This document shows, one piece after another, positions 27,673 through 56,745 of a stretch of DNA of 64,000 bases (the stretch's first letter is position 1; every line of letters begins with the position of its first letter). Below the pieces are notes generated by a model. The model had not been told where the DNA came from, did no database searches, and was given only the letters and a program-made list of their open reading frames with translations. The position numbers and the translations under genes are program-made. The DNA comes from Gemmatimonadota bacterium (lineage in GTDB: Bacteria; Gemmatimonadota; Gemmatimonadetes; Palauibacterales; Palauibacteraceae): contig JBHIAV010000009.1 in assembly GCA_046758745.1 (NCBI GenBank), positions 1 through 64,000 of the forward strand, written 5' to 3'.

Positions 27673-27794
27673 CCTGCTCGATCGAAGCTCTCTCAGTGGC
27701 AAGGTAGCCCTGCGACCGGGCTCCGCCAACATTGAAGGTGGTGACCTCCATCTTCGGGAGGCACCGCACGTCGCGCAACGAGGAGGCAGTACCG

Positions 27795-28253
27795 ATGGAC
27801 GTGTACCTGGTTCACCACGGTCGGGCCAGGTCCGAGGAGGACGACCCGGCGCGGCCCCTGACGGAAGGGGGACGAACTGACACGGAGAGGGTGTCCGCGG
27901 CCATAGGAAGGCACGGCATCCGGCTCGAAGAGATCTGGCACTCTGGTAAGCTGCGCGCCGCGCAGACGGCTGAGATCCTTGGCAGCAGACTGAAACCGAG
28001 CGGCGGCATCCACCGGAAGGACGGTCTCGCTCCCTGGGATCCACCCGGCCAAATGGCCGAAGCCGTGGCGGCAGCTCCGGAGCCCGTCATGCTCGTCGGT
28101 CACCTCCCGCACCTCGGCCGGCTCGCCTCCCTCCTGCTGGTCGGTGACGAGGAGAGAGAGTTGGTGGCTTTCCGGAACGCCGGCGTGCTCTGCCTGTCGA
28201 GGGACGACGGGAGATGGCGCATCCGGTGGTATCTGCCGCCCGAGCTCTCGTGA
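27795..28253 (+). CDS. sixA: phosphohistidine phosphatase SixA
   Basis: YLVHHG (RHG variant), RPLTEGG, HSGKLRAAQTA and MLVGHLPHL; RBS AGGAGG. Confidence 0.88.
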   Translation: MDVYLVHHGRARSEEDDPARPLTEGGRTDTERVSAAIGRHGIRLEEIWHSGKLRAAQTAEILGSRLKPSGGIHRKDGLAPWDPPGQMAEAVAAAPEPVMLVGHLPHLGRLASLLLVGDEERELVAFRNAGVLCLSRDDGRWRIRWYLPPELS

Positions 28254-28288
28254 TACGTCTCAACGGGGCGCGCGTCTCCGGGCGATGG

Positions 28289-29053: not shown

Positions 29054-29189
29054 GCGGCGTGGGTGTCGCTTCGGCACCACCGCCCGGTCCGCCGGTTCTC
29101 GGCACTGTGCCGCCGGCTCTCGGCGCCGCCCCGCCGGCCGGTCCCCGCCGGCGCTCTCCCGGCGCGCCCGGCTTCCTCCTGCTCCGCGC

Positions 29190-31622
29190 ATGAAGCTACG
29201 ATTCCTGCACCTCTCCATCCTCGTGGTGAGCGGGGTGGGAATCGCGTACGAGCTGGTTCTCGTGCGCGTGTTCTCCGTCGCGCAGTGGTACCACCTGGCC
29301 TACATGGTCATCAGCATGGCCATGCTGGGATTCGCGGCGAGCGGCACCGTTCTCGGCCTCATGCGCACACGGCTCGCGGGCCGCGAGGCCTCGCTCTTCC
29401 GGCTCGCGTGCGGACTCCTCCCGATCGCCATCGTCGCCTGCTATGCGGGAAGCCAGAGGATCCCGTTCGAAACCTACCAGCTGGTCTCCCGGCCGACCCA
29501 GTTCGCCAACCTCCTCGCCCTCTACCTCGTGCTTTCCGTCCCCTTCTTCCTCGTCTCCTCCTGCATCGTCCTCGGCTTCCAGATGGCGCCCCGCCGCGTG
29601 GGGCGCGTATACTTCTCCAACCTCCTCGGCTCGGGGCTCGGTGCTGCGCTCGGCGTCGGCTGCCTCTTCCTCCTTCCCGTGTCGAGGATCCCATACGTCC
29701 TCGCCCTCATCGCAGTGGTCGCGTTCGCGCTGTCGGGCCTGGACGCCCCCGGCTGGCTGGCACGGGGACTCCCCGTGCTGGCTCTCACCGCCGTATGGGT
29801 CGCCGGGCGCGGACCGACGTCGATCCGCGTGTCGGAGTACAAGGGCCTCGCCTATGCCCTCCGCTTCCCGGACGCCGCAATCGTCGGGCGGGCGGTGAGT
29901 CCGATCTCGGAGCTTACCGCCGTCTCCTCATCCATGCTGCGGGAGACCCCCGGCCAGATCTCGAACTACCCGATGGCCGAGCTGGGGAACCTCCCGGAGC
30001 AGATCGGCCTGTTCTTCGATGCGGGAGCGGTCTCGCCCGTGCACCGCTTCGACGGTTCGCTCGAGCGATTCGTTTTCCTGGATCACGTCACCTCCGCCCT
30101 GCCGTACCACATACTCGATCGGCCTCGCGTTCTGGTGCTCGGGGCCGGTGGAGGCGTGGAGGTGCTGAGCGCGCTGGTGCACGGAGCCCGGGAGGTAACG
30201 GCCGTCGAGGTGGAGGGAAACGTGTACCGCCTTCTGGAGACGGAGCTGCGCGAGTTCTCGGGGGGTCTGTACGAGCGGCCGGAGGTGCGGCCCGTCGTGG
30301 CCGAGGGCCGCGGCTTCCTCGCGGCGAACGAGCGGGAGTACGATCTGATCCAGATCTCCCTGCTCGACTCGTTCAGCGCCTCTTCGGCCGGGGTGCACGC
30401 GCTCAACGAGAGCTATCTGTACACGGTCGAGGCGATTGCGCTCTACCTTCGTCGGCTCTCGCCCCGCGGTATTCTGGCGATCACGCGGTGGCTGAGGACC
30501 CCGCCGCGCGATGCGGTCAAGCTCTTCGCCACCATGGTGGAAGGGTGTGAGTCGGCCGGGATCGTCGAGCCGGGACGACACCTGGCCTTCATCCGTTCGT
30601 GGAACACCGGGACCATACTCGCGTCGCGCTCCCCGCTGTCCGAGTCGCAGGTAGCAGCGATCCGCGACTTCGCCGAGGCGCGTTGGTTCGACCGGAGCTA
30701 CCACCCCGGCCTCACGCCGGCCGAGGTGAACCGCTACACCGTGCTGGCGGAGCCGGCGTACCATGAGGCGGCGCTCGACCTTCTCTCGGCGGAGCGGGAG
30801 CGATTCTACCGCGCCTACCCCTTCTACGTGCGTCCGGCCACCGACGACCGCCCCTACTTCTTCCGCTTCATCCGGCTGCGATCACTCCCTCGCTTCATGC
30901 GTCAGTTCGGCCGGGACTGGGTGAGCTTCGTGGAATGGGGATACATCCTGCTGGTGGCCACGGTGGCGCAGGCCGCCGTGGCGGCGATCGGGCTCGTGCT
31001 CATCCCCCTTATTCTGTTCGCCCGCGGCTCCGCCGCAACGGGAAGGCCGAGCGTATCCGGGTACTTCGGCGCGCTCGGCCTCGCCTACATGTTTCTGGAG
31101 ATCGCGTTCATCCAGAAGTTCATGCTCTTCTTGAGCTACCCGGTGTACGCGGTCGCGGTGGTGCTGACCTCGTTCCTTCTCTTCTCGGCGCTCGGGGCGT
31201 GGCAGGCGGACCGCCACCGCGCGAGAAGGAGACGCCTCGTGGGAACTACGGTCGTGGCCATCGTGGGGCTGTCGGCGCTCTACCTCCTGCTCCTCCCTCC
31301 TCTCTTCACGGCCCTCGCGGGGTGGTCCGATGCAGCGAAGATCCTGGCGAGCCTGGCGCTGCTCTCGCCCCTCGCCTTCCTGATGGGGGTGCCCTTCCCC
31401 GCCGGTCTCCAGGTGGTGTCGGACCGCCGCGCCCCCCTCGTGCCATGGGCGTGGGGGATCAACGGAGGAGCTTCGGTGGTGGGGGCGACCCTCGCCACGC
31501 TGCTCGCCGTACACGCCGGCTTCCGCGCGGTGGTCGCTGTGGCCGTCCTCCTCTACGGGGTGGCCGTTCTCGCCCTGCAGCGGCTGGACAGGGCGGATCC
31601 TCGCACCTCGCTCGAGGTATGA
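29190..31622 (+). CDS. multi-pass membrane protein with a central spermidine-synthase-like SAM-binding domain
   Basis: About 7 N-terminal TM helices, VLVLGAGGG, YDLIQISLLDS, LYTVEA, PATDDRPYFF and about 6 C-terminal TM helices. Confidence 0.85.
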   Translation: MKLRFLHLSILVVSGVGIAYELVLVRVFSVAQWYHLAYMVISMAMLGFAASGTVLGLMRTRLAGREASLFRLACGLLPIAIVACYAGSQRIPFETYQLVSRPTQFANLLALYLVLSVPFFLVSSCIVLGFQMAPRRVGRVYFSNLLGSGLGAALGVGCLFLLPVSRIPYVLALIAVVAFALSGLDAPGWLARGLPVLALTAVWVAGRGPTSIRVSEYKGLAYALRFPDAAIVGRAVSPISELTAVSSSMLRETPGQISNYPMAELGNLPEQIGLFFDAGAVSPVHRFDGSLERFVFLDHVTSALPYHILDRPRVLVLGAGGGVEVLSALVHGAREVTAVEVEGNVYRLLETELREFSGGLYERPEVRPVVAEGRGFLAANEREYDLIQISLLDSFSASSAGVHALNESYLYTVEAIALYLRRLSPRGILAITRWLRTPPRDAVKLFATMVEGCESAGIVEPGRHLAFIRSWNTGTILASRSPLSESQVAAIRDFAEARWFDRSYHPGLTPAEVNRYTVLAEPAYHEAALDLLSAERERFYRAYPFYVRPATDDRPYFFRFIRLRSLPRFMRQFGRDWVSFVEWGYILLVATVAQAAVAAIGLVLIPLILFARGSAATGRPSVSGYFGALGLAYMFLEIAFIQKFMLFLSYPVYAVAVVLTSFLLFSALGAWQADRHRARRRRLVGTTVVAIVGLSALYLLLLPPLFTALAGWSDAAKILASLALLSPLAFLMGVPFPAGLQVVSDRRAPLVPWAWGINGGASVVGATLATLLAVHAGFRAVVAVAVLLYGVAVLALQRLDRADPRTSLEV

Positions 31623-31638
31623 GAGCGCAGCTTCTCAG

Positions 31639-32766
31639 ATGACCCCTGGAGGCCGCACGCACCCGACGGCGATGGTGTCCGGAGCCAAGCACATCGTCCC
31701 GACCCGCTGGTGGCACGCGCTGGACGACGGGCGGGTGCAGTGTGACCTGTGTCCTCGCGCCTGTCGGCTCCGGGAGGGCCAGCGGGGGCTCTGCTTCGTG
31801 CGGGCCAACTCCGGCGGGGAGATCGTTCTAACCACGTACGGCCGCTCGAGCGGCTACTGCGTGGACCCGATAGAGAAGAAGCCGTTGAACCACTTTCTCC
31901 CCGGCACACCCGTACTCTCCTTCGGGACAGCCGGATGCAACCTGGCGTGCAAGTTCTGTCAGAACTGGGACATCAGCAAATCCCGGGAGGTGGACACCCT
32001 CTCGGACGGGGCAGCGCCTGAGGAGATCGCCCGGGCGGCGGAGGCGCTCGGGTGTCGCAGCGTCGCCTTCACGTACAATGACCCCGTCATCTTCCACGAA
32101 TACGCGATCGATGTCGCGCTCGCCTGCCGGGAGCGAGGCGTCCGGTCGGTGGCGGTCACCGCCGGCTACGTGACCCCCGCGCCGCGTGCCGAGTTCTACC
32201 GCCACATGGACGCGGCCAACGTCGACCTCAAGGGGTTCACGGAGCGCTTTTATCAAAGGGTGTGCGCCGGACATCTCGAGCCGGTGCTCGACACCCTGCG
32301 CTACCTGCGGCACGAAACCGATGTGTGGTTCGAGATCACCAACCTGCTGATCCCCGGGGAGAACGATTCCGAGGAGGAAATCGACGCGATGACGGGGTGG
32401 GTTGTGGAGAATCTCGGACCCGACGTCCCGGTGCACTTCACCGCCTTCCATCCCGATTGGAAGATGCTCGACCGGCCGCCTACTCCCCTCGACACCCTGG
32501 AGCGGGCGCGGAGCATGGCCCGGCGGAACGGGGTGCGCTACGCCTACACGGGCAACGTGCGTGACCCCGCCGGGCAGAGCACGTACTGTCACGAGTGCGG
32601 CCGGCTGCTGATCGGTCGGGACTGGTACGCGCTCATCGGGTGGAATCTCGAGGTGGATGGGAGGTGCGCGAGCTGCGGTGAGGTGTGCGCGGGCGTGTTC
32701 GAGGCCGCACCCGGCCGTTGGGGTCCGAGGCGGCTTCCCGTGCGGCTGGCCGATTTCGCCGCGTGA
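31639..32766 (+). CDS. amrS: AmmeMemoRadiSam system radical SAM enzyme
   Basis: CDLCPRAC, DPIEKKPLNHFLPG, GTAGCNLACKFCQNWDIS, AFTYNDP, HFTAFHPDW and YTGNV. Confidence 0.92.
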   Translation: MTPGGRTHPTAMVSGAKHIVPTRWWHALDDGRVQCDLCPRACRLREGQRGLCFVRANSGGEIVLTTYGRSSGYCVDPIEKKPLNHFLPGTPVLSFGTAGCNLACKFCQNWDISKSREVDTLSDGAAPEEIARAAEALGCRSVAFTYNDPVIFHEYAIDVALACRERGVRSVAVTAGYVTPAPRAEFYRHMDAANVDLKGFTERFYQRVCAGHLEPVLDTLRYLRHETDVWFEITNLLIPGENDSEEEIDAMTGWVVENLGPDVPVHFTAFHPDWKMLDRPPTPLDTLERARSMARRNGVRYAYTGNVRDPAGQSTYCHECGRLLIGRDWYALIGWNLEVDGRCASCGEVCAGVFEAAPGRWGPRRLPVRLADFAA

Positions 32767-38304: not shown

Positions 38305-39180
38305 CTACGCCAGGCTCCCAACGAGGAAGAGGGCGAGCGCACCCAGCCCGAACAGCCACCCGATCCCCCGCGCGACGTCGCTCTCCGCTCCGGTCAGCGG
38401 CTCCTCCAGCATCAGCCTCCGTAGCTGCTCGGCGTCCCCCAGGGGCTCGTAGCGTCCCTCCAGCCAGTCGGCCAGCGACCGGAGGTTCCCCTCGTTGAGC
38501 CGCGAGGTGATGCACTCCCCGGACTCGTCGCGCAGGCAGTCCCGCAGCGGGGCGCGGCGGAACTCCGGCACGGTGGAGCTGCGTGTCTGCCCGACCCCCA
38601 CGAACGTCACCCGCGCGTTGTCGAGCAGCCAGGCCGTGGCGTCCCCCAGCACCTGGGGCCTCGCGTCAGCCCCCCCGCCGTCCGTGAAGAAAAAGATGTT
38701 GAGCGGCGCGGGCAGGATGCGCTGCCGCCCCGCGACGGAGAAGACGCTGCTCCTCTGAGCCTGGACGACGATGTCCCGGAGACCCTGATCGATACGGCTC
38801 CCCACGTCCCACACATTGTCCCACTCGAGCACGGAGAGGGCCGCCTCGATGGCGCCCAGGTCCCGCGCGGGGTGGGAGAGCAGGAAGACCTGGACCGTCC
38901 CGCCCGCGAAGCCGGCCACCGTGAGGCGGGCCTGCGGAGGAAGGTCGGGGAGCGCCTGCCGGAAGACGTCTCTGGCGAGGTCCAAACGGCTCCTCGGGAA
39001 CCCGCCCTCCGCATAGTCCTCCGTGGCCATGCTCAGGCTCGCATCGAAGACGATCAGGTACTCGATCCCGGCGGCGCGCCGCTTCACCACCGGCTCCAGT
39101 GCGGCCGTCAGCGCGAGCCCCAGGCACGCGAGGTAGGCGGCCCGTCCGAGGGTGGTCCAGGCGCCGGGAGCAAGCCGCAC
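38305..39180 (-). CDS. MxaL-like VWA domain protein
   Basis: IVFDASLSMATEDY (MIDAS), SRLDLARDVFRQALPDLP, LEWDNVWDVGSRIDQGL, FFTDG and a C-terminal TM helix. Confidence 0.75.
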   Translation of the reverse strand: MRLAPGAWTTLGRAAYLACLGLALTAALEPVVKRRAAGIEYLIVFDASLSMATEDYAEGGFPRSRLDLARDVFRQALPDLPPQARLTVAGFAGGTVQVFLLSHPARDLGAIEAALSVLEWDNVWDVGSRIDQGLRDIVVQAQRSSVFSVAGRQRILPAPLNIFFFTDGGGADARPQVLGDATAWLLDNARVTFVGVGQTRSSTVPEFRRAPLRDCLRDESGECITSRLNEGNLRSLADWLEGRYEPLGDAEQLRRLMLEEPLTGAESDVARGIGWLFGLGALALFLVGSLA

Positions 39181-39188
39181 GGAGCCGC

Positions 39189-39632
39189 CTAGATGTCGGT
39201 GGGCTGGAGGGGCATCTGGCTCGGAGCGAACCTGTCCGGCGGCCGCGGCTCGCGCGGCTCGCGCGGCGGCACCAAGTCGTTCAGCAGTCGCCGGGCGACC
39301 TCGTAGTTCTTCTTCGCGTCCAGCAGCTCCGGATTCAGGCGGAGCGCCTCCCGATAGTAGGCGAGCGCCGTTCGCACCGCGGCCGGCCATCTGCGACGGG
39401 CGCCCTGCTCGAAGTACAGGTTTCCCAGGTTGACGAGAAGGTGGTCGCGGATCCGGCCGGCCCGCGGCACGGCCTCGGCGTAGGCCTCCGGCGTGCGCTC
39501 CCGAAGCGTCCGGTAAAGCGCGCGCTCCACCGTGAACTCCCGAACCGCATACGCCAGGAGCAGCGCGTTGGCGGCGATGAGCACCAGGAGCGCCTTCCTC
39601 CACGACGGCATGCCCGGAAAGGTTCTCTTCAT
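39189..39632 (-). CDS. MxaK-like TPR protein
   Basis: N-terminal TM helix; VNLGNLYFEQG...YYREALRLNPELLDAKKNYEVARRL; ATGA overlap with the upstream VWA gene. Confidence 0.75.
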   Translation of the reverse strand: MKRTFPGMPSWRKALLVLIAANALLLAYAVREFTVERALYRTLRERTPEAYAEAVPRAGRIRDHLLVNLGNLYFEQGARRRWPAAVRTALAYYREALRLNPELLDAKKNYEVARRLLNDLVPPREPREPRPPDRFAPSQMPLQPTDI

Positions 39633-40558
39633 GCGTGCGTTTCGCTCCTCCGGGCGCGCTCGCTGAGGGCGAAGAAACCGAGCGCGATGAGGCATCCCAG
39701 GGCCGCCGTCCGGCTCAACCGGCTCCAGCTCCGGCCTTCCTGGCGCTGCTCGACCTTCATGAGACGGTTCTCCAGCCTGCCGATCTCCTCGAGCGCCCGG
39801 GGAAGCTCGTTCTCCTTCCCCACCACGAAGGTTTCGCCGAGGGAGCCGAGGGTCTCCATGAGGAGGTGCATCGACGCCTCGGGCGCGCGTCCCCCTTCGA
39901 TGAGCAGCCAGTACAGGGTCACATCCGCCGCCCGCAGCCGCGCGGCGATTCGCTCCGGCTCCCGAAGGCGACCGGCCCCATCCGAAAGGAGGATCACCAC
40001 CTGGCTCGCCGCCCGGCTCTCCTGCCCTTCCAGCAACCGGAGCGCCCGAAGGAGCGCCGCGTCGATGACCGTGTCACCGAGATCGGTGTTCAGAAGCGAG
40101 AGGGTCTGCTGGAAACGCCCCGGGTCGGAGATCGGCGGGGTGTAGACGATGCTGGATTTGCCGAACCCGATCAGGGCCATCTGATCGCCGGCTCGTCGGT
40201 CCACGAACCCCGAGATCGCCGCCTTCGCGACCGTGAGCTTCTTCGCGCCCTCTCCGCCCCCTCCGCTCCACGGCGAGAGCATGCTCGCGCTCTGGTCCAA
40301 CACGAAGACAAGACGTGCGCCCTCGGTCCATCGAACCGTCGTCTTCGGCGGGGTCCGCGGCTCGCTGAGGCCGAGCACGGTCGCCGCCACGAAGCCTGCG
40401 CCGAGGAACCGCTCGGCAAGCCCCAGGGAACGCGAGATGCGATCCGGCGGGAGCACCAGGAAGCTGGAGAAGCGGAGCGCCGCTCGCCGCCGACGCCACA
40501 GGAGCGGAACCAGACAGAGCGGAAGGAGGATCAGCGCCCAGGGTCTGGCGAACTCCAA
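39629..40558 (-). CDS. MxaC/BatA-like VWA domain protein
   Basis: MEFARPWALILLPL N-terminus, FVLDQSASM (MIDAS), RAGDQMALIGF and ILLSDG. Confidence 0.82.
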   Translation of the reverse strand: MEFARPWALILLPLCLVPLLWRRRRAALRFSSFLVLPPDRISRSLGLAERFLGAGFVAATVLGLSEPRTPPKTTVRWTEGARLVFVLDQSASMLSPWSGGGGEGAKKLTVAKAAISGFVDRRAGDQMALIGFGKSSIVYTPPISDPGRFQQTLSLLNTDLGDTVIDAALLRALRLLEGQESRAASQVVILLSDGAGRLREPERIAARLRAADVTLYWLLIEGGRAPEASMHLLMETLGSLGETFVVGKENELPRALEEIGRLENRLMKVEQRQEGRSWSRLSRTAALGCLIALGFFALSERARRSETHA

Positions 40559-41550
40559 CTCCGCCTCCAGGCAGCGGGTCGTTCACCGCCGCGTCGAAGC
40601 TCCAGTTCGGCGAGGCGCGCGGAGAGCTCCACCGCCCGCCGTCGGCTCTCGGGAGAAGGGGCCGCCGGCGTGCCGTCGCCCTCCTCCCTCGGCGTCCCAT
40701 CCCCGAAGAAGAGCGACTCCGAGAGAGCGAAGAAGCGCTCGAGGTCATCGCGCACGGCACCGGCAGGAGGCCACCGTTCGACCAGGGCCTCGAAGTCGTG
40801 TGAGAAGAGGGCCTTCCCTGCCCGCTCCTCGAGAGCGCGATGGAGTACGAGCATCGCGCCGGCAGAGTCCGGTGCGCGGCGGACCTCGCGGTGGGCCCTC
40901 GAGAAGACGCCTCTTGGCCTCCGGCGACGCGCTCCGACGGCCGAAGCTCCCCACAACAGGAGGAGAGCCGCGAGAGAGGTGCCGGAGAGTCGAATCCCAC
41001 GGGAGGAGGGGGGGCGCACGGGCCAGTCCGGTTCCAGAGCGCTGATCGAGTCCGTGACAGGCGACACGGTGAAGCCGAACCCGGGGATCGAGACCCGGAG
41101 CTCCTCCGCGTCCCGTCCGGACCGGAAGAGCAGGGCCACGTCCGGAATGTCGAGGCGTGTCACCTCCTGGGGCGCGTGGAAGATCTGGTAGAGGAAGCGA
41201 AACCGGTACGACGCCCATGCCTCCTCCTCCCGCAGCTGCCAGGAGGTCTCTCGGGTCTCGAGCCAGTCCGGCAGGGAACGATCGCGCAGGACGCGCTCGT
41301 CGAGCGCGAAGCCGGGCGGCACTCGAACCGACGCCCGCAGCTCGAGCAGGTCCCCGACCCGATACCCGAAGTCCCGTGGTCGCTCGATGCGGACCTGCGC
41401 GGAGCTGCTCGTCTGTCCGGATGCGGGGAGCGCGGCGAGCAGCAGGAGCAGCGCGCTCAGGCCGGCCGCCCGCGGGGCCCCTCCTCCCCGCGAGCTCGAA
41501 GGGTGGCCGGGGAGCCGCCGGGCACCCGCGCGTCCGACCGCACCGGTCAC
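40531..41550 (-). CDS. MxaA-like protein
   Basis: Signal peptide LLLLLAALPASG, PRDFGYRVGDLL, YQIF, TM helix, then LHRALEERAG...LERFFALSESLFFG; start uncertain. Confidence 0.72.
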   Translation of the reverse strand: MTGAVGRAGARRLPGHPSSSRGGGAPRAAGLSALLLLLAALPASGQTSSSAQVRIERPRDFGYRVGDLLELRASVRVPPGFALDERVLRDRSLPDWLETRETSWQLREEEAWASYRFRFLYQIFHAPQEVTRLDIPDVALLFRSGRDAEELRVSIPGFGFTVSPVTDSISALEPDWPVRPPSSRGIRLSGTSLAALLLLWGASAVGARRRRPRGVFSRAHREVRRAPDSAGAMLVLHRALEERAGKALFSHDFEALVERWPPAGAVRDDLERFFALSESLFFGDGTPREEGDGTPAAPSPESRRRAVELSARLAELELRRGGERPAAWRRSWSSPDPGR

Positions 41551-41566
41551 GGTCCCCGCAACACCA

Positions 41567-42445
41567 TCACGCCCTTGCCTGCCCCCTCCGGCGGAGAAAG
41601 AAGCGAACGAGCTCCGCGGGATCGAACGGGCAGTGGAGAAAAAGCGAATGGCTCCCGTAGCGGCGGCACTTCTCCAGCAGGAGGGCGCGCCGCGCCTCGA
41701 AGGTCCGCTGAAAGCGCGGGACCAGACCACGCCGGAGCCACCGACGCGTGCGAGCGCCGGTCTCCGGGTCGTACAGCTCCGTCCATCCCGTGCGGGGGAG
41801 CTCTCTCTGCTCGGCCGGGTCCCACAGGACCGCCAGGATCCCGTCGTGACGCTGCAGGTGGGCGAGCGCGCGCTCGACTGTCCCGCCGCCGAAGTGGAAA
41901 TCGGAGACCAGGAGCACAAGGGATCTTCGGCGCGGCAGGAGCGCGCACGCACGGTCCAGCCCACCCACGCCTTTGGCGCTCGCCCGGTGGCGCCACAGCG
42001 CCTCCCCGATCTCCCACGGGTAGTCGGCAGAGCGCTTGGGTGGGAAATACAGCTCCACGTCATCCCCGAACCCTGTCAGGGTGAACCGGTCTCCGAGCCG
42101 GTAGGCGGAGTGGCTCAGGCAGGCGGCCAGCTTGGCCGCTTCAGCGAGCTTGCGTCCCCGTCCCACGAAGCCCATCGAGGCGCTCAGGTCTACCAGGACG
42201 GCTACGTCGATCGCGACCTTGGCTTGGTACAGGCGAACGAGGGGAACGGGCGACATGGCGCGGCGTGTCGCCACCATGTCGATGTTTTTCGGGTCCATGC
42301 GGTGCAGTAGGGAGGCGAAGCCCGCCAGCTTACCGGCGGTTCCATGGAAAGCCCCGATGTGGTAGCCGGGAAGATACCCGGGAGCGACGGATTCGAGAGT
42401 GTAGTCCACGAGCCGGAGGGTGGCCGCGATCTCCCTCCGCTTCAT
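41567..42445 (-). CDS. MxaS-like DUF58 protein
   Basis: PGYH, DPKNIDMVAT, VLVDLSASMGF, SAYRLGDRF, LVLLVSDFH and LYDPETG. Confidence 0.85.
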   Translation of the reverse strand: MKRREIAATLRLVDYTLESVAPGYLPGYHIGAFHGTAGKLAGFASLLHRMDPKNIDMVATRRAMSPVPLVRLYQAKVAIDVAVLVDLSASMGFVGRGRKLAEAAKLAACLSHSAYRLGDRFTLTGFGDDVELYFPPKRSADYPWEIGEALWRHRASAKGVGGLDRACALLPRRRSLVLLVSDFHFGGGTVERALAHLQRHDGILAVLWDPAEQRELPRTGWTELYDPETGARTRRWLRRGLVPRFQRTFEARRALLLEKCRRYGSHSLFLHCPFDPAELVRFFLRRRGQARA

Positions 42446-43470
42446 GGAGCGGGAACCTGCGCGAGGATGCGCTTGAGGAGCGCTTGCCTGAAATCCGGCC
42501 TCTGGATGAGGATCATGGGCTTCACGAAGAGACGGTGCTCGAAGACCTCGAAAAACACTTCGTGAATGTCCTCGGGCGTCACGTAGTCCCGGCCGTGATA
42601 CGCGGCTGCGACCTGTGCGGCGGTCGCGAGGTGGGTCATGCCCCGAGTGGAGGCGCCCGCCACGATGTGCTCGTTGAGATCCGCGAGCCCGTCCAGGCGG
42701 ATTCCGAAATCCGAGGGCTTTCGCGTCGCCATTCCCAGACGGTGGATGTAGCTCACCGCCGCCTCGCTGACCCGGACACCGGAGCGGATTCGCTCCGCGT
42801 ACCGATCCAGTTCGGCCAGCTCGACGACGGGCTCGATCGAAGCGACCGCCTCGTCCATGTGTCGGTATAGAGGATCGGCGATGATGCGCAGCTCCGCTTC
42901 CGGATCCGGGTATTCCACCCGTATGAGCATGAGGAACCGATCGAGCAGCGCCTCGGGGAGCGGGTACGTCTCGGCCGCCTCGAGCGGGTTCTTGGTCGCA
43001 ATGCCGAGGAAGTGAGGGAGCGGGTATGTCCGAACCGCCGTGGTGACCTTGCGCTCCTGCATGACCTCGAGAAACCCGGCCTGCGTGTTGGGAAGAAAAC
43101 GGTTGATCTCGTCCAGCAGGACGATCCCGAGCTTCTCCCCGTGCCGCAGCAGCCGGCCGGCGTAATAGCGTAGCTCCCCCTCCTCATCCGGGAAGGCCGA
43201 GATGAGCGCCTCGGAGAAGAGGAAATCCGGCGACCCCTGAAAGCGCTCGCTCACGCCCCCGATCGCCCGGGCGAAGCAATTGGCCATCAGGGTCTTCCCC
43301 TGTCCGGGAAAGCCCTGGTAGAGGATGTGGCCACGCGCGAACAGAGCGAAGGTGGTGAGCCTCACGGGCCGATCGGCCCCCAGGATGACGCCCTTTACGG
43401 CCTCCTCTACGGCGTTCATGCGAAGCCGGACCTCGGGCAACTCCGGCTCCACTCTTTCTTGTCGGCTCAC
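42442..43470 (-). CDS. moxR: MoxR/MxaR family AAA+ ATPase
   Basis: LFARGHILYQGFPGQGKT (Walker A), LLDEINR (Walker B), ETYPLPEALLDRF, GASTRG and GRDYVTPEDI; GTG start after GGAGGGAG. Confidence 0.92.
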   Translation of the reverse strand: MSRQERVEPELPEVRLRMNAVEEAVKGVILGADRPVRLTTFALFARGHILYQGFPGQGKTLMANCFARAIGGVSERFQGSPDFLFSEALISAFPDEEGELRYYAGRLLRHGEKLGIVLLDEINRFLPNTQAGFLEVMQERKVTTAVRTYPLPHFLGIATKNPLEAAETYPLPEALLDRFLMLIRVEYPDPEAELRIIADPLYRHMDEAVASIEPVVELAELDRYAERIRSGVRVSEAAVSYIHRLGMATRKPSDFGIRLDGLADLNEHIVAGASTRGMTHLATAAQVAAAYHGRDYVTPEDIHEVFFEVFEHRLFVKPMILIQRPDFRQALLKRILAQVPAP

Positions 43471-43548
43471 GGCTCCCTCCGGCGGGCGGAGCTTCCGGCT
43501 CCCGGTCCCGATCGGACGCGTAGCGGATTGTAAGGCCAAGGGAGGAGA

Positions 43549-45450
43549 TTAGGGAGGGCGGTTCTCGAAGTACACCAGCCCTCCCCCGATCCCGCCGCTG
43601 AGCAGGTCGGCGTCTCCGTCTCCGTCGATGTCGGCGAAGATAGGCGTGGCGAGAGGGGGCAGGGGTACCGAAAGCGTGCTGTCGGGCACGAATGCGGCCC
43701 CCTCGCGCGTGCCGTCGTTGCGATAGTACGTCAGACCCGGGTCCTCCGAACCGAGCACGAGGTCCGGATCGCCATCGAGGTCCAGATCCACGAAGGACGG
43801 GAAGCTCCGCCGTCCGATGTCGATCTCACCGAACTCATCCGTCTCCATGGTGAAGGCGGAGCGCAGCGGGGTTCCCTCGTTTCGATAGAAGTTGAGCGTG
43901 CCCGAGGCCTCGCCGACGAAGAGGTCGAGGTCCCCGTCGGCGTCGATATCGACGAGAGCCGGCGTGCCGTTGCTCCCCCGGGTGAGCGTGACGAGCTGGG
44001 CATCCTCCAGAACGAATCGCGGCTCGACGGTGCTCCCCTCGTTGCGATAGAAGGCCACATCCGCCTTCCACGACCCGAGCAGGAGGTCAAGATCTCCATC
44101 GGCGTCGAGGTCGGCCAGCGCCGGTGAGTAGTGGTACAGGCCGCCGAGGTCGAGCGAGCCCGCAAGCCGGAAACGGGGTCGCTCCACCGTTCCTACATTG
44201 TCGAAACGGTAAACCCGGGAAGTGTGCGGGTCGTCGGGATCGATCTTGTTGGCAAGCAGCAGGTCGAGGTCCCCATCCCCATCGAGGTCGCCCACGGCCG
44301 GGATGCTCTCGCTCCCCACGTCCACTCCATTCAGGAAGCGCCGGGTCCGCAGGCCGAACTCCGCCTCCCCGTCGAGAAGATACAGATTGTCCGCCGCGGT
44401 GAGGATCGGGTTGTATGCCCCGCCGAGGACGCCGACGAGCAGGTCCACGGTCCCATTCCCGTCGACATCTCCGAAGGTCGGGGCGTTGTAACCGCTCGTT
44501 CGGAGGGGACGCGCCGGCGGAAAGGGGACGGGCTCGCCCCGCAGCACCGGGACCTCGCACGATCCTGTGTTCTCGATGAACAGGAGGCCGGGCTCGAAGA
44601 AGTCGCCCCAGAAGAGGTCCTCGTCGCCATCGTGGTCGATGTCGACCAGCTCCATCGTGTTCGCTCCGTGCCGGCTCCCGATTCGCGCGACGATCTCGAT
44701 GTCCTGGAATCGATCGGTCACCAGACGGAAGCGCGGCACCCCATGTGCCCCCTCCTCCTCCGCCTCGTATCGGGTGACCGTGCCTACCAGGCGGCCGAGC
44801 AGGAGGTCCGGCCGGCCGTCGCAGTCGACATCCGCCACGTTCGGAATGTTCTGGCGATCCGAAAAGATCGGCACACCCTCCACGTCACGGAGGGTATCGG
44901 CCGCGAGGACGAAGAAGGGGCTCTGCGGCCCGCCGTCGTTTCGGTAGTAGCGGATGTGGCTGAACCGCTCTTCGGCGAGGAGGTCGAAGTCTCCGTCGTC
45001 GTCCATGTCAACAAAGCGGTACCACTCTCCCACATCGAGCCCCAGGTACCGATCCGTCCGCCACAGGAAGCGGCCCTCTCCCGGGGGGCCGACCTGCTCG
45101 AAGAACATGAGCTGACCGGAGAGCTCCTGTACGAAGAGATCCAGGTCCCCGTCGCCGTCGATATCGAGGAGCTGCGGTCGCGGAACGTTCAGTCCTCCGA
45201 GGAGCGGGTGCTCGTACCGGATCCCATCGGTGTCGCTGATCTCGAACGCGCCGACCGCGCGCACGAAGCGCACACCGGACCCGGGGTGCGCCGCCTGTGG
45301 CCAGGAGTCCGGCGCGGGATGCGAGGTGCAAGCGGCCAGAAGGGAAGCGCACGCCAGGCAGGCCGCCGTGGGAAAACCGAGCTGTCCGAGGCGGCTTCGC
45401 GCGTCCGTCCCATCGATGGCCGACCGAGCGGACGCGAGCGCTGGAGGCAC
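43549..45450 (-). CDS. FG-GAP/VCBS repeat beta-propeller lipoprotein (Ca2+-binding loops)
   Basis: Lipobox LLAAC; about 10 DxDxDGDxDL loops; start uncertain. Confidence 0.87.
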   Translation of the reverse strand: MPPALASARSAIDGTDARSRLGQLGFPTAACLACASLLAACTSHPAPDSWPQAAHPGSGVRFVRAVGAFEISDTDGIRYEHPLLGGLNVPRPQLLDIDGDGDLDLFVQELSGQLMFFEQVGPPGEGRFLWRTDRYLGLDVGEWYRFVDMDDDGDFDLLAEERFSHIRYYRNDGGPQSPFFVLAADTLRDVEGVPIFSDRQNIPNVADVDCDGRPDLLLGRLVGTVTRYEAEEEGAHGVPRFRLVTDRFQDIEIVARIGSRHGANTMELVDIDHDGDEDLFWGDFFEPGLLFIENTGSCEVPVLRGEPVPFPPARPLRTSGYNAPTFGDVDGNGTVDLLVGVLGGAYNPILTAADNLYLLDGEAEFGLRTRRFLNGVDVGSESIPAVGDLDGDGDLDLLLANKIDPDDPHTSRVYRFDNVGTVERPRFRLAGSLDLGGLYHYSPALADLDADGDLDLLLGSWKADVAFYRNEGSTVEPRFVLEDAQLVTLTRGSNGTPALVDIDADGDLDLFVGEASGTLNFYRNEGTPLRSAFTMETDEFGEIDIGRRSFPSFVDLDLDGDPDLVLGSEDPGLTYYRNDGTREGAAFVPDSTLSVPLPPLATPIFADIDGDGDADLLSGGIGGGLVYFENRPP

Positions 45451-45537
45451 GGCGGGGGTCAGGGAGGGGGCGGGGTGGCCAGCCCCGTCGGATTCGGCTG
45501 TCGGTCGATCACCAGCGCACGATTCAGGGGGCGCCGG

Positions 45538-47967
45538 CTACGGCACCAGCTCGGGGCGCTTCTTCACGATGAACACGCCTTCGGAGCCGCTCGTAACGAC
45601 GAGCGTACCGCTCTCGAAGAAGGGATAGTTGCTCCAGGACCCACCCATCCCCGGTGTGTTCTCCCCGTACGGGACCGTGTCGAAGAACGCGATCTCTACA
45701 GGATGCTCCACATCCCGAATGTCGACCACGCGGAGACCGGCCCGGTAGTTCGACTGATACATGTAGTGCCCGCGGATGTACAGGTTGTGGTCCGTCGCCT
45801 TCGTCTCCCCGAAGTATTCCTTGAGGAGGACCGGGTCGTCGAGGTCCGTCACGTCCCAGATCAACGTCCGGGTCCGCGACAAGTCGCCCGAAAGCTCATC
45901 CAGCTCGTCGTCCATGAAAAAGTACCGGTGGTCCTCGGTGAGCCAGCCCTGGTGAGCGTAGCCCACGTTCGGGTACTCCGCTCGGGAGACGGCGACCGGG
46001 TGCTCCTTCTCCGTCACATCGGAGATACTCAGTGCCGTTTCGTTGGCACCGAAGCAGATTTCCCTTCCCCGATGCTCCGCGTCAGGACCGTGGTACACGA
46101 CGCACTGGGCGTCGTGTGTGTACCCGGTCTTCCGCCGGCCGGTCGATGAGTCGGCGAAGCAGCCCGCGAAGGTCGGCTTCTCGGGGTCCCGGATGTCGAT
46201 CATGTGCAGGCCGCCCCCACACGTCTCTCCGCCGCTGCTGGTCCCCACCGCGAAGGCGAATCCCGTCTCTTCGTTGATCACGATGTTGTGGGCGCTGTGG
46301 ATCCCGTCATAGTGTGCCGTCTCCTCAAAGGTGACCGGCGGGTTCGAGACGGAGCGGAGCCGGGTCAGATCGAATACCTGCATGCCGTGCTCACCCGCCC
46401 CGTCCGAGACGATGAAGGCGTGGTTCTCGTACACCTTGATGTCCCGCCACACGCTTCCCGGCGATCCTTCCGTCTTTGGCAAGTCACCGAGATACACGGG
46501 GTTGTACGGATCGCTGATATCGATGAACGAGGTGCCGTCGACACGTCCGACGAGGGCGTACTCCCTGCCGGTCTGCGGATCGGTCCAACCCCACACATCG
46601 TTCACTCGAGCGCCGCGTCCCCCCCCGATCGCCGAGACCGGCAGGAAGGAGAGGAGATCGAGCTCGCTGCAGTCGAAGAGCGAGGCTGAACCGCCGGTGC
46701 ACTCCACCTCTCCGCCGATGATCGGGTCGAGGCTCTCGGCCTCACTGAGCACGGTAGCGCTCTCCTTCCACACCCCACCGCTGCCGCTCCGCTCGAAGAT
46801 GACCGCCGCGCCGGCCCCGTAGTCATCTCCGAGCACGCCGGCCACGCCGACGCCGCCCCGGGCCGCCAGGGACCCGGCGAAGAAATCTCCTCTTTCAAGT
46901 CCATCGTGCGCCAGCTTGGCTGCCGCGGCCCAGCCGCCGGTGGCCGCGTCGCGGCGGATGCGGTAGACGGTGCCGGCGAAGCGCGATGCGCCGGGCGCGC
47001 CGACGAACACATCCGCTCCCGCGAAGGCAAGCGTGCTGCCGAATCGGCTCTGGCGCTCTCCGTCGAACGGAACCAGGCGGGACCGCTCCGTCCACTCTCC
47101 GGTGTCGCGGTCGTACCGGAACTCGAACACGGCGCCCCTGTAGCCATCGTGTCCCGGTGCGCCGATGAAGGCGACGTCTTCGGCCAGCATGAGCGAAGAC
47201 CCGAAGCCGCCCTCCTTCTCGATCCCTGTCCCCCGCAGCTTGGCTTCCTCTGTCCAGCCGCCGGTGGCGGCATCGTGGCGGAAGACATACGCGCTGCCGG
47301 CCGCACTGTCCTGCCGGGAAGCACCGATGATCGCTACATCGCCATGCAGGGACACGGCCGCGCCGAAGCGATCTCCGGGCTCGAGGTCGGCCGGCACCAC
47401 CCGCGCCTGTCGTGACCAGTCTCCCGACGTCGGGTCATGCCGGTACACGTACGCCGCGCCGGTACTGTCGTCCTCCGCGAACGAGCCGATGAGGGCGACA
47501 TCCCCGATCAGGGCGAGAGCCGTGCCGAAGGAGCCCCGACCCTTACCCTCGTCCGGGACGATGCGGACCTCCGGTACCCACTTTCCCACGGCGACCCGGC
47601 GAAAAACGTGCACCACGCCGGCGGCGTGGCCCTCGGCTCCCGAACCGACCAGGAGAGTGTTGCCGTCCACGGCGAGAGAGCGACCGAAGCCGTCACCCGT
47701 GGCCGCCTCAGGGGCTACGAGACGCGCGGCTTCCTTCCAGGCACCGGTCGGGGCGTCGCGGCGGTACAGGTAAACGATGCCGGAACGGAAGTGGTTCTCC
47801 GGTTCACCGACGAAGATCTCGCCGTCTCCCACCGCGACGGCGCGGCCGAAGCCGGTGAAGGTGCTGACCTCGTGGCCGGGGTCCGATCGGAAGGACTGGG
47901 CCTTCACGGGCGTCGCCGCGCCCGCAATCACCAGAAGAGCCAGCAGTTGGCAGCCAGACAGCTTCAA
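45538..47967 (-). CDS. secreted FG-GAP repeat protein with choice-of-anchor B domain
   Basis: Signal peptide; FGxxxA...GA...GxxYxF repeats; NDVWGWTDPQTGREYALVG, WRDIKVY, SAHNI, YTHDAQC, YAHQGWLTED and GSWSNYPFF. Confidence 0.88.
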   Translation of the reverse strand: MKLSGCQLLALLVIAGAATPVKAQSFRSDPGHEVSTFTGFGRAVAVGDGEIFVGEPENHFRSGIVYLYRRDAPTGAWKEAARLVAPEAATGDGFGRSLAVDGNTLLVGSGAEGHAAGVVHVFRRVAVGKWVPEVRIVPDEGKGRGSFGTALALIGDVALIGSFAEDDSTGAAYVYRHDPTSGDWSRQARVVPADLEPGDRFGAAVSLHGDVAIIGASRQDSAAGSAYVFRHDAATGGWTEEAKLRGTGIEKEGGFGSSLMLAEDVAFIGAPGHDGYRGAVFEFRYDRDTGEWTERSRLVPFDGERQSRFGSTLAFAGADVFVGAPGASRFAGTVYRIRRDAATGGWAAAAKLAHDGLERGDFFAGSLAARGGVGVAGVLGDDYGAGAAVIFERSGSGGVWKESATVLSEAESLDPIIGGEVECTGGSASLFDCSELDLLSFLPVSAIGGGRGARVNDVWGWTDPQTGREYALVGRVDGTSFIDISDPYNPVYLGDLPKTEGSPGSVWRDIKVYENHAFIVSDGAGEHGMQVFDLTRLRSVSNPPVTFEETAHYDGIHSAHNIVINEETGFAFAVGTSSGGETCGGGLHMIDIRDPEKPTFAGCFADSSTGRRKTGYTHDAQCVVYHGPDAEHRGREICFGANETALSISDVTEKEHPVAVSRAEYPNVGYAHQGWLTEDHRYFFMDDELDELSGDLSRTRTLIWDVTDLDDPVLLKEYFGETKATDHNLYIRGHYMYQSNYRAGLRVVDIRDVEHPVEIAFFDTVPYGENTPGMGGSWSNYPFFESGTLVVTSGSEGVFIVKKRPELVP

Positions 47968-54130: not shown

Positions 54131-56737
54131 TCAGCGCTTCTCGAGGCGTTCCCTGACCCGCGCCAGCAGCGCATCGAGCTCTCGATAACTCTCATCCATT
54201 CGGGGCAGGAGCTCGTCCGGGCGTACCCCGGAAAGTCGCTCCGCTTGCTCTTCAATGCTCCGGCAGCTCGTACGCTGCGACAGCAGAGGGCGGAATCCAG
54301 ACCGGGTGTCGCCCTCTCCCCGGACTCCGTGTAGAGGCGGTGCGGGCTGGGCATACCGCACGGCCGTGGCGAACAGCTGCTCCGCTTCCCCAAGCCTGTC
54401 CTCCTTCCATGCCAGGTAGCCCTTCAGGTAGTGGGCCGTCACGCTCCGGAAGTTGGAACGGGTGACCGCATCCAGCTGCTCGCGGGCGCTCGAAAGATCG
54501 CCACGAATCGCGGCGAGCTGCCCGAGGTGGAGGAGCGGACCCGTCTCCTCCCTGTTGATCTCCAGGGCCCGTCTGAACTCGGCTTCCGCCCGCTCGATGT
54601 CGGCGTACCTCTCCTCTTCGAAACAGGAATAAAGCACTCCGAGCTGAGAGTGCCCCCGAGAGCTGTTCGGGTCGACCTCGACCAGTCGCAGCCAGGACTG
54701 TTCGGCCTTGGCGAACTCGCCAAGCTCGAAGTACATGTTGCCCAGGTAGTAAAGGGCGTCCTGGTGCGTCTCGTTCAGCTCCAGGGCGCGCGCGTAGTTC
54801 GCCGCTGCTGCTCGTGTCTCTCCGGCCACCCGGTGCCGGGTGGCCTGGCGATACAGCTCCCAGAACCGGTGAACCCGCTCCCGCGCGTCGGTCGTCGCCG
54901 AACGATGTGCACCTGCGGGGACCCCGTCCGCCCGCTCTCTTTCCTCTGCCACCAGGACGGTCTGGTTGGCTGCGAGCGCGATCAGCAGCTGTTTCGAGCC
55001 GCTCGGCCACGCGATGGCGAGCGTGTCCACTTCCCGAAGCGACCCCAGGCCGAAATGCTCGATCGGGCTGTTCTGCGAGAGATACGAGCTCTGGGCACCC
55101 ACTTCTCGAATCTGTGCTCTGCCACCGGCGACGAGGCGCAACTTGGCGCCGAGCGCCGAGCGGTTGCTGCGTGTTCCGTGGAGCAGGACTTTCAGCCACG
55201 CGTTTCTGTTGCCGCCGTCGTTCCGCAACAGCACACCTGGACCGCCATTGTTCACGACGAAGACATCCACGTCCCCATCGTTGTCGTAATCCCCGAACGC
55301 GGCACCGCGACCCACGTACTCCTGGCCGAAATACGGACCGCTCACGGACGAGACGTCGTAGAAGCCCTCGGTTGGCCCCCGATTCCAGAAGAGCTGATCG
55401 GGCATGGGAATCAGGAGCTGAGGTCGAGCCGGGTCCTGGAAAGTGCTGCCGTTGACCACAAACAGATCCAGTCGACCGTCGTTGTCGTAGTCGATGAAGG
55501 ACGTTCCCCATCCGATGAAGTCGAGCGCGATCTGCCCCAACCCGTAGCGATCCGCCTCATCCATGAAGCGCAGCCCGCTCACCGGTGGATTATCGAGGCC
55601 GGAAAACCGGGAAAGCAGGCTGTTGAAGAGAGCATTCTCCTGCGCGATCCAGTGGGTGACGAAGATGTCTCGATCGAGATCCCCGTCCCAATCACCCACG
55701 GCGAGACCCATTGCTCCCCTATAATCCGCTACGAGGGCCGCATGGCTGACGTCCTCGAAGTATCCGTTGCCCAGATTTCGAAAGAGCGCATTGTCCGAGA
55801 CATCGTTGGCGACGTACAGGTCCGGCCAACCATCCTCGTTCAGATCCGACCACACGGCCGCCAGGCTCCTGCCCCGCCGGCCGCCCACGCCGACCCTGTC
55901 GGCCACCTCGGTGAAGGTTCCGTCAGCGTTGTTGTGAAACAGGAGGTTTCGCTCCGGCTCGAATGCCGAGGGGTTGATGCTCGCCGGAACCTCCACGTCA
56001 TACTGCAGGGACGCTTGCCCCGTCGGTCCGGGAGAGAACCGCACGTAGCCGGCGACATAGAGATCCAGGAAACCATCACGATCGTAATCACCCCAAGACG
56101 CTCCCGCCCAGAAGCCCGCCCGCCCTCCAAGGCCCGATTCCCGCGTCACGTCCGTGAAGGTGCCGTCTCCATCGTTTCGGTACAGCACGTTGTTTCCGTA
56201 GGCCGAAACGAATAGATCCGGCCAACCATCGTTGTCGTAATCGCCCCACGCCGCCGCCATTCCCAGACCACGGAAGTCCACCCCGGCCGCGGCGCTGACT
56301 TCGGTGAAGGATCCATCGCCATGGTTGTGGTACAGGACCGAGTGCGCGGGAGAGGACGCCGTTTCGTCGTCGGACAGGGTGAGAGGACCCGTCTCGTTTA
56401 CGACGAACAGGTCGAGCCAGCCGTCATTGTCGTAGTCGCCCCAGGCCGCGCCGGAGCCCATGTCCTCCGGGAGCTGGCTGGATCTGTCGCCGAAGAAGTG
56501 CCGGAAACGAATCCCGGCTTCCGCCGAGACATCCGTGAACGTCACCCGCGGGTAGTCGTCGGGAAGGGACCGCGCGAGCTCGGCACTGAGTCCCTCGACC
56601 TCTTCCCCGGGCCGATGCGTCGGCTGCCGGCGGAGCACGCTCCACACGATCGCCCCCGCCGAGCCGACGACGAAGAGCACACCCAGAGCCGCCGTGATCG
56701 CCACGGAACGTCTGCGACGAGGCAAAGAGCGGAACAT
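54131..56737 (-). CDS. CRTAC1-like FG-GAP / ASPIC-UnbV protein with C-terminal TPR repeats
   Basis: N-terminal TM helix, FTDVSAEAGI, many GDYDNDGxxDLFV loops, SNRSALGA...SYLSQN...HFGLG (ASPIC/UnbV) and TPRs. Confidence 0.9.
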   Translation of the reverse strand: MFRSLPRRRRSVAITAALGVLFVVGSAGAIVWSVLRRQPTHRPGEEVEGLSAELARSLPDDYPRVTFTDVSAEAGIRFRHFFGDRSSQLPEDMGSGAAWGDYDNDGWLDLFVVNETGPLTLSDDETASSPAHSVLYHNHGDGSFTEVSAAAGVDFRGLGMAAAWGDYDNDGWPDLFVSAYGNNVLYRNDGDGTFTDVTRESGLGGRAGFWAGASWGDYDRDGFLDLYVAGYVRFSPGPTGQASLQYDVEVPASINPSAFEPERNLLFHNNADGTFTEVADRVGVGGRRGRSLAAVWSDLNEDGWPDLYVANDVSDNALFRNLGNGYFEDVSHAALVADYRGAMGLAVGDWDGDLDRDIFVTHWIAQENALFNSLLSRFSGLDNPPVSGLRFMDEADRYGLGQIALDFIGWGTSFIDYDNDGRLDLFVVNGSTFQDPARPQLLIPMPDQLFWNRGPTEGFYDVSSVSGPYFGQEYVGRGAAFGDYDNDGDVDVFVVNNGGPGVLLRNDGGNRNAWLKVLLHGTRSNRSALGAKLRLVAGGRAQIREVGAQSSYLSQNSPIEHFGLGSLREVDTLAIAWPSGSKQLLIALAANQTVLVAEERERADGVPAGAHRSATTDARERVHRFWELYRQATRHRVAGETRAAAANYARALELNETHQDALYYLGNMYFELGEFAKAEQSWLRLVEVDPNSSRGHSQLGVLYSCFEEERYADIERAEAEFRRALEINREETGPLLHLGQLAAIRGDLSSAREQLDAVTRSNFRSVTAHYLKGYLAWKEDRLGEAEQLFATAVRYAQPAPPLHGVRGEGDTRSGFRPLLSQRTSCRSIEEQAERLSGVRPDELLPRMDESYRELDALLARVRERLEKR

Positions 56738-56745
56738 GAGGGCTG

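Follow-up and report, generated by a model that had tools for sequence, protein, structure and literature searches.

A deep-branching mxaRSACKL-type cassette in a Gemmatimonadota genome, with a lanthanide-type XoxF encoded elsewhere as its likely client

What is the role of a gene cassette that resembles the mxaRSACKL accessory genes of methanol dehydrogenase, at a locus that carries no dehydrogenase gene and lies directly behind two genes for FG-GAP proteins? This question is raised by the first 64,000 bases (positions 1 to 64000) of contig C9 from a Gemmatimonadota genome (G000; 3.08 Mb, 130 contigs, 87.4% complete), hereafter called the window, in which eight co-oriented minus-strand open reading frames (ORFs) were listed at positions 38305 to 47967. 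An initial annotation had read six of them as tightly coupled genes in the order MoxR-DUF58-MxaA-VWA-TPR-VWA and had offered two possible clients, the neighboring FG-GAP propellers or an unlinked pyrroloquinoline quinone (PQQ) dehydrogenase acting in trans. Our analysis indicates that these genes probably constitute a true, deep-branching mxaRSACKL cassette, whose likely client is a lanthanide-type XoxF supplied in trans from another contig (C20), while the adjacency to the FG-GAP genes is incidental.

Gene models were refined by inspection of start codons, and families were called with Pfam and NCBIfam. Results revealed that all eight annotated ORFs and their order were borne out, with six closely packed genes occupying positions 38305 to 43470 of the minus strand in the mxaRSACKL order. 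In the direction of transcription, these are as follows.

42442..43470, minus strand: mxaR-like MoxR AAA+ ATPase (AAA_3, 101.8 bits; AAA_lid_2, 56 bits)
41567..42445, minus strand: mxaS-like DUF58/VWA protein (DUF58, 82.6 bits; DLSAS, similar to a metal ion-dependent adhesion site [MIDAS])
40531..41550, minus strand: mxaA homologue of 339 amino acids (homology to named MxaA proteins; no Pfam or NCBIfam family)
39629..40558, minus strand: mxaC-like membrane-anchored VWA protein (VWA_2, 60.9 bits; VWA, 42.7 bits; MIDAS DQSAS)
39189..39632, minus strand: mxaK-like small transmembrane (TM) and TPR protein of 147 amino acids (TPR_1, 22.3 bits, below the cutoff)
38305..39180, minus strand: mxaL-like VWA protein carrying TM helices at its two ends (VWA_2, 25.6 bits, slightly under the cutoff; MIDAS DASLS)

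The R/S and C/K junctions are ATGA overlaps, mxaA and mxaC overlap by 28 nucleotides (nt), and spacings of 16 and 8 nt separate S from A and K from L, respectively. The most likely start of MoxR is GTG at 43470, with GGAGG upstream; the longest ORF begins at TTG 43539, a codon that is CTG in the strain from run X3. The GC and third-position GC (GC3) contents of the cassette (0.65 to 0.72, versus 0.684 for the genome) match the genome and thus give no compositional sign of recent transfer. Scanning for promoters and terminators remained at the level of shuffled sequence (one promoter-like site versus 0.7 expected; seven terminator-like sites versus 5.6), and no common promoter motif was observed when the regions upstream of MoxR were aligned between the window and G044, the nearest cassette-bearing relative, a genome of the same order as G000 and of a sister family.

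The assignment of the third gene, which matched no family, came from a word-based search with its protein that returned nine proteins, among which those named as MxaA had E values from 2.4e-48 to 1.9e-12. They included two JGI entries called "mxaA protein," one MxaA from Methylocystis, and one "calcium incorporation protein MxaA" from Paraburkholderia, and the window protein was 26 to 33% identical to the named MxaAs. The alignment was full length, with 21 invariant columns and the conserved motifs PR.FGY..GD and HRAL..G. A profile search of 1.84 billion representatives retrieved 1,266 members of this family at an E value of ≤0.001, including 653 at ≤1e-30. The predicted model of the window protein (predicted local distance difference test [pLDDT] score, 84.5) comprised a signal or anchor helix (residues 27 to 40), a beta-sandwich (52 to 162), a TM helix (184 to 210), and a helical bundle (215 to 319), suggesting a layout of signal peptide, periplasmic beta-sandwich, one TM helix, and cytoplasmic helical bundle. 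Such a modeled architecture would fit the coupling of a cytoplasmic ATPase/VWA module to the periplasm. No solved structure was matched by sequence when the MxaA profile was used as the query (best E value, 0.71), and Foldseek with the model retrieved generic Ig-like beta-sandwiches only (cohesins and pilins; query TM-score, ≤0.24), without a functional lead. In addition, the closest MxaA relatives fell into singleton clusters from metagenomes, one of them labeled as a Bacillota metagenome-assembled genome (MAG), and provided no useful taxonomy.

The MoxR protein places the cassette in the Mxa lineage as well. Its Walker A (GFPGQGKT) and Walker B (IVLLDE) motifs are both intact, and phmmer comparisons gave 199 to 224 bits against the MxaRs of other phyla (163 bits for one Methylomirabilia locus) and 163 and 117 bits against the paralogues on contigs C11 and C40 of its own genome. 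When five other genomes were compared with the window MoxR, the MxaA-linked copy ranked first every time. Phylogenetic analysis (maximum likelihood, 25 MoxRs, LG+C20) revealed that the window and G044 MoxRs form a pair (100/100 support) adjoining a 12-member clade of MxaA-linked MoxRs, and a 100/99 branch splits both from the generic paralogues, with one MxaA-linked exception that is weighed below. As a second exception, another Methylococcus MoxR copy (L038) fell on the Mxa side of the tree. Independently of the tree, two insertions follow the same division, namely, a five-residue [KR][HN]GE.L insertion right before Walker B (LLRHGEKL in the window) and an FGI.L.. insertion further on (PSDFGIRLDG in the window). 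Both were present in 13 of the 14 aligned MxaA-linked MoxRs and in L038, and none of the 10 generic MoxRs had them. At Walker B, the proteobacterial and acidobacterial MxaA-linked MoxRs read FFFNE(I/V)NR, with Asn for the usual Asp, whereas the window and G044 copies retain LLDEINR, as in generic MoxRs. The low scores to AAA_3 and DUF58 likewise place the window with the Mxa type and apart from the generic one: 101.8 and 82.6 bits in the window, 101.1 and 76.3 bits in G044, 83.8 and 78.7 bits for Methylococcus MxaR and MxaS, and 89.4 and 54 bits in Woeseiaceae, versus 216.5 and 223.3 bits for the generic operon on C11. The DUF58 score of the window MxaS is thus near that of Methylococcus MxaS and far from that of the generic DUF58 protein in its own genome.

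The remaining proteins are consistent with this assignment. MxaS, MxaC, and MxaL all retain an intact MIDAS motif, the last two being VWA proteins whose membrane anchors were read from the sequence only. By phmmer, the window MxaC matched the gene at the same position in 14 other genome loci. MxaL gave 52 bits to Methylococcus MxaL, had no paralogue in its own genome by phmmer, and shared the motif W..W..S.I..GL with eight of the nine aligned MxaLs, LEWDNVWDVGSRI being the window sequence that sits on it. MxaK scored 172 bits against its G044 counterpart and weakly (23 to 28 bits) against the K-position ORFs of three loci outside Gemmatimonadota (L022, L023, and L025); it is a putative MxaK mainly by its position, and its size also fits. 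The four motifs quoted in the initial annotation (LLRHGEKL, PSDFGIRLDG, PRDFGYRVGD, and LEWDNVWDVGSRI) were all found in the proteins named, and its view that the cassette is of the Mxa type rather than the Bat type is backed by the MxaA homologue, the MxaR insertions, the MxaL motif, the tree position, and the RSACKL order.

To which enzyme, then, is such a cassette linked in other organisms? Genomes (one per species) and metagenomes were scanned with a pattern derived from a six-sequence MxaA alignment. Among the 16 genome loci retrieved, 15 contained cassette genes according to phmmer with the window proteins, in each case arranged as R-S-A-C-(K)-L along a single strand, while L032 had none; one of these loci was the mxaF-J-G-I-R-S-A-C-K-L cluster of Methylococcus, serving as the canonical positive control. 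The same order was found in 49 of the 50 metagenome loci fetched. Seven of the 15 genome loci have a PQQ dehydrogenase gene next to the cassette, comprising six xoxF genes with xoxJ (L021, L022, L023, L024, L030, and L031) and one mxaFJGI set. These xoxF genes are mostly divergent from mxaR, and the five of the six that were checked are all of the DYD type. Among the 49 metagenome loci, 14 likewise have an adjoining PQQ dehydrogenase gene (L077 to L080, L083, L086 to L089, L092, L093, L095, L096, and L114). Many cassettes elsewhere flank xoxF or mxaF. As a side observation, xoxJ and xoxF mostly divergent from mxaR-S-A-C-K-L recur in marine gammaproteobacterial MAGs, including Woeseiaceae, Thiotrichales, Granulosicoccaceae, and others.

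Within Gemmatimonadota, MxaA was detected in 2 of 61 relatives (counting G000), namely, G000 itself and G044, which has a XoxF gene elsewhere in its genome. A search of 401 evenly sampled Gemmatimonadota genomes found the cassette in one, again G000, with a sensitivity that was reduced because only five first-look candidates per genome were scored. A member of the PQQ dehydrogenase family scored above the cutoff in 20 of the 61 relatives, and the top XoxF class (697 to 703 bits) occurred in four (G000, G048, G008, and G044), including both MxaA genomes. In Woeseiaceae, 53 of 81 sampled genomes had a family member above the cutoff, and five had the top XoxF class (756 to 767 bits). Four of these five (three of four without G480, which is flagged as unpublished) carried MxaA on the same contig within ∼4 kb, while MxaA was found in only 1 of the remaining 76 genomes. 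In this sample, the cassette tracks one XoxF subtype, the top-scoring class. These counts are indications and not statistical tests, considering that kin are not independent and that the classes were defined post hoc. Between G000 and G044, XoxF is 77% and MoxR is 78% identical, versus 60% for the housekeeping GTPase YchF, and when G048 is included, the ranges are 77 to 84% for XoxF and 58 to 60% for YchF. On this single marker, there is a hint that xoxF and the cassette have had a history (shared transfer) or a constraint unlike that of the core genome.

The gene content of G000 offers a candidate client of this kind. Contig C20 encodes a XoxF (TIGR03075, 702.8 bits) followed by a MoxJ/XoxJ-type binding protein (TIGR03871, 313.7 bits), a cytochrome c (xoxG; 66.4 bits to MoxG, below the cutoff), and a PQQ-system binding protein. 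The C20 protein has WDYDG in the place of the WDYAG of the Methylococcus MxaF control, and a passage of PMC10875860 describes the extra Asp as a mark of lanthanide enzymes. By this residue, and with xoxJ and the cytochrome c gene beside it, the C20 dehydrogenase is classed as a lanthanide-type XoxF. The stretch immediately upstream of xoxF-xoxJ-cytochrome c encodes the RuBisCO large subunit, phosphoribulokinase, and transketolase (L004; C20, 19273 to 28801), which suggests that Calvin-cycle assimilation is coupled to lanthanide-dependent methanol oxidation in G000. Genes for cofactor synthesis are represented by pqqC (329.6 bits) and a pqqE-like radical-SAM/SPASM gene on C47 (L006; 1766 to 7418); these adjoin a gene for an LVIVD-repeat/Big_2 protein. 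As annotated, no dehydrogenase or pqq gene lies in the window, and the whole of contig C9 contains neither a PQQ dehydrogenase of the methanol/ethanol family nor pqqC, so the cassette is linked to no mxaFJGI set. Such linkage does not define the cassette, since stand-alone clusters have been described in a passage of PMC4109929. In the 87%-complete genome, mxaF was not found, and a PF02315 search detected no MxaI, while the Methylococcus positive control gave 155 bits. Because neither mxaF nor mxaI was found, XoxF is the likely client. A search of the genome thus recovered xoxF, pqqC, and the pqqE-like gene, though not mxaF or mxaI, and the second option of the initial annotation, an unlinked PQQ dehydrogenase in trans, agrees with this gene content, with xoxFJG on C20 and the pqq genes on C47.

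The first option concerned the two genes directly upstream of MoxR, which we regard as neighbors outside the system.

43549..45450, minus strand: FG-GAP_3 (VCBS-like) lipoprotein (FG-GAP_3, 139.5 bits; lipobox-like LLAAC)
45538..47967, minus strand: secreted FG-GAP_2 and choice-of-anchor B (CoaB) protein (FG-GAP_2, 150.6 bits; TIGR04312, 461.4 bits, cutoff 100)

If all eight genes formed one system, the cassette would insert Ca2+ or a lanthanide into the DxDxDG loops of these propellers and thereby mature them. The layout agrees with such a system: the genes are co-oriented with gaps of under 100 nt, as annotated (87 nt between the two FG-GAP genes and 78 nt from the FG-GAP_3 stop to GTG 43470), the window scan found no promoter- or terminator-like site within these gaps, and the lipoprotein has nine exact DxDxDG loops, or 10 with D/N allowed, in line with the approximately 10 annotated. 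The adjacency of the FG-GAP_3 and MoxR genes is also real rather than an assembly artifact, since the junction is spanned in contigs of three separate runs within a single study. However, a role of the cassette in propeller maturation is largely refuted by distribution. Ten loci of relatives were fetched around the best CoaB matches (L059 to L068); CoaB is followed by a co-oriented FG-GAP_3 homologue in nine of them, and the flanks of all 10 lack a match to MoxR, DUF58, MxaA, or VWA. The CoaB family is multicopy and occurs in 22 of the 36 other genomes of the window's family, with up to 10 matches per genome, whereas MxaA was found in none of the 36; the family was found in none of 24 sister-family genomes, and G044 has the cassette with a divergent gene upstream of MoxR and no CoaB match. 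Conservation of this linkage, which the initial annotation had set as a test of its reading, was not seen in the other cassette loci, as no FG-GAP or CoaB match lies beside the cassette in the 15 genome loci or the 49 metagenome loci, ∼30 of these 64 having at least 2 kb upstream of MoxR and a few metagenome loci duplicating genome loci. The CoaB/FG-GAP_3 pair is a separate, lineage-typical two-gene module whose adjacency to the cassette is incidental, and we consider it very improbable that its products are the client. Scarcely credible, and the least probable of the alternatives, is a generic Bat-type MoxR-DUF58-BatA/B/C operon with an aerotolerance-like or other role that is Mxa-like by domain content only. 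The sole NCBIfam matches of the C, K, and L proteins are indeed to Leptospira BatA (33.5 bits), BatC (22.8 bits), and BatB (21.8 bits), along with a weak BatA N-terminal Pfam match (17 bits), but the former are far below the cutoffs of 380, 175, and 350, and the Pfam scan found no BatD or BatE family match among the window proteins. The genome has its own generic MoxR-DUF58-VWA operon on C11, which is clearly different (163, 54, and 34 bits to the window MoxR, DUF58, and VWA proteins). Taken together, the low Bat-family scores, the MxaA homology, the MxaR insertions missing from all 10 generic MoxRs, and the tree indicate that the cassette is of the Mxa type.

More weight, although still unlikely in our view, is given to a true Mxa-type cassette that either serves a client other than XoxF or is a relic. 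Such a client might be another periplasmic metalloprotein or the second PQQ dehydrogenase on C20 (L005; 33271 to 40100), which scores 483 bits, has WDLDA at the metal position, and lies beside two TonB-dependent receptors, whose best NCBIfam match is PqqU (297 and 110 bits, far below the cutoff). A relic is not obvious, given six intact ORFs, overlapping junctions, and a genome-like GC3, and another client is less consistent with the linkage of the cassette to the top XoxF class in Woeseiaceae and with the dehydrogenase genes adjoining it in the genome and metagenome loci. Nevertheless, several points weigh against a true Mxa cassette with XoxF as its client, the first three of which also speak for another client or a relic. 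G008 (89% complete) and G048 (83% complete) encode top-class XoxF and have no MxaR-type MoxR or MxaA, suggesting that XoxF may not need the cassette. Among five genomes with unlinked cassettes that were searched for a PQQ dehydrogenase of the methanol/ethanol family at an E value of ≤1e-80, three have one elsewhere and two, both MAGs, have no match. A passage of PMC12276312 presents MxaFI, "in contrast to XoxF," as requiring the six auxiliaries, in keeping with an assumption of the field that XoxF needs no RSACKL, and the portions of the literature consulted contained no experiment testing RSACKL genes for XoxF. In the MoxR tree, the MxaA-linked L029 is placed among the generic MoxRs, and the branches of the window-G044 pair and of the proteobacterial MxaRs are long (1.24 and 1.22), making long-branch attraction conceivable, although the shared insertions argue against it. 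Finally, read-through transcription from the FG-GAP genes into the cassette is possible, since no terminator-like site lies between FG-GAP_3 and MoxR. Having considered these points, we still regard a deep-branching mxaRSACKL cassette serving XoxF in trans as the probable explanation.

The cassette itself is identified by homology and gene order, by signature insertions and tree position, and by genome content and comparative linkage, from which we infer a mechanism, a membrane topology, and XoxF as client. By analogy with the characterized system, the cytoplasmic MoxR AAA+ ATPase (MxaR) and the DUF58/VWA adaptor (MxaS) would drive a membrane complex formed by MxaA, MxaC and MxaL (both VWA/MIDAS proteins with membrane anchors), and the small TPR protein MxaK, and this complex would insert the metal at the active site of a periplasmic PQQ methanol dehydrogenase. 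The recipient in G000 would be the lanthanide-type XoxF of the xoxF-xoxJ-xoxG genes on C20, supplied in trans. The analogy draws on passages of PMC12276312 in which deletion of any gene of the mxaRSACKL set in Escherichia coli yielded MxaFI without Ca2+, activity being restored by Ca2+ in vitro, and whose authors proposed a MoxR/VWA complex for metal insertion while leaving XoxF maturation open. We tentatively propose, with somewhat less than even confidence, that MxaRSACKL is not specific to Ca2+-dependent MxaFI and is also, perhaps originally, a maturation or metal-insertion system for lanthanide-type XoxF. The canonical DE at Walker B, a genome in which only XoxF was found, and the gammaproteobacterial xoxJ-xoxF/mxaRSACKL arrangement would be comparative evidence for such a role. 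If true, this would contrast with accounts of methanol dehydrogenase assembly that leave XoxF maturation open or assume no helpers; in an account of Gemmatimonadetes XoxF (PMC10875860), the terms "moxR" and "accessory" never occur. The window cassette adds to the case that the MxaRSACKL machinery also serves XoxF, and it extends this machinery to Gemmatimonadota, where it is rare, in a host genome that encodes RuBisCO, phosphoribulokinase, and transketolase in addition to XoxF. Considered alongside the cassettes linked to xoxF in other phyla, it makes a possible dependence of XoxF on MoxR/VWA helpers for lanthanide loading a concrete question open to test.

Other genes of the window include further propeller-related ones. 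At 54134 to 58971, a gene for a 985-amino-acid FG-GAP_3/ASPIC-UnbV/TPR protein lies beside one for a 741-amino-acid protein with a weak cytochrome c554 match, and an LVIVD-repeat protein is encoded at 24742 to 26574; the CoaB protein has repeats of the LVIVD type in its C-terminal half. In addition, positions 13003 to 16594 carry a divergently transcribed end-joining repair pair of Ku and a full LigD (phosphoesterase, ligase, and primase-polymerase), and positions 26680 to 32763 encode two radical-SAM proteins flanking large ORFs (399 and 860 amino acids) without a Pfam family.

Four known systems invite comparison with the cassette. Bat aerotolerance operons (MoxR-DUF58-BatA-BatB-BatC-BatD-BatE) likewise begin with MoxR and DUF58, followed by membrane VWA and TPR proteins; unlike them, the window has MxaA together with the insertions and tree position of Mxa-type MoxRs. 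The MoxR-vWA-beta-propeller ternary systems (bpMoxR, PF20030) similarly have MoxR and VWA genes beside beta-propeller genes, and bpMoxR scored 33.4 bits on the window MoxR (cutoff 27). This score is unspecific, as the generic C11 MoxR and Methylococcus MxaR gave 54.4 and 32.3 bits, respectively, and the AAA_3 score of the window protein is far higher; moreover, the propellers of the window, unlike those of bpMoxR systems, are secreted FG-GAP proteins that lack a conserved linkage. The proteobacterial mxaFJGIRSACKLD cluster has all six protein types of the window, MxaA among them, in an identical order, and it agrees with the window in the MxaR insertions, the MxaL motif, and similarly low AAA_3 and DUF58 scores of MxaR and MxaS. 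Unlike this cluster, the window cassette is unlinked to mxaFJGI, in a genome where no mxaI was found, and it is very divergent, with MoxR at ∼200 to 224 bits to MxaRs, DE instead of NE at Walker B, and DxSxS instead of DxTxS in the MxaL MIDAS. Partial mxa accessory sets are noted for the XoxF5-only Sphaerotilus in a passage of PMC13300288. According to passages of PMC4109929, Methylotenera mobilis JLW8 and M. versatilis 301 have no mxaFJGI and two mxaRSACKL clusters "elsewhere on the chromosomes," and the core genome of Methylophilaceae is taken to include MxaRSACKL alongside XoxF and PQQ genes. As in these XoxF-only Methylophilaceae, G000 has a whole accessory cluster away from its methanol dehydrogenase genes, with xoxF, xoxJG, and pqq genes and no mxaFI; unlike them, it belongs to Gemmatimonadota and carries a single-copy cassette that is rare in its phylum. 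Stand-alone mxaRSACKL in XoxF-only bacteria has thus already been published, and what the initial annotation took for a candidate undescribed system is a new, deep-branching member of this known one.

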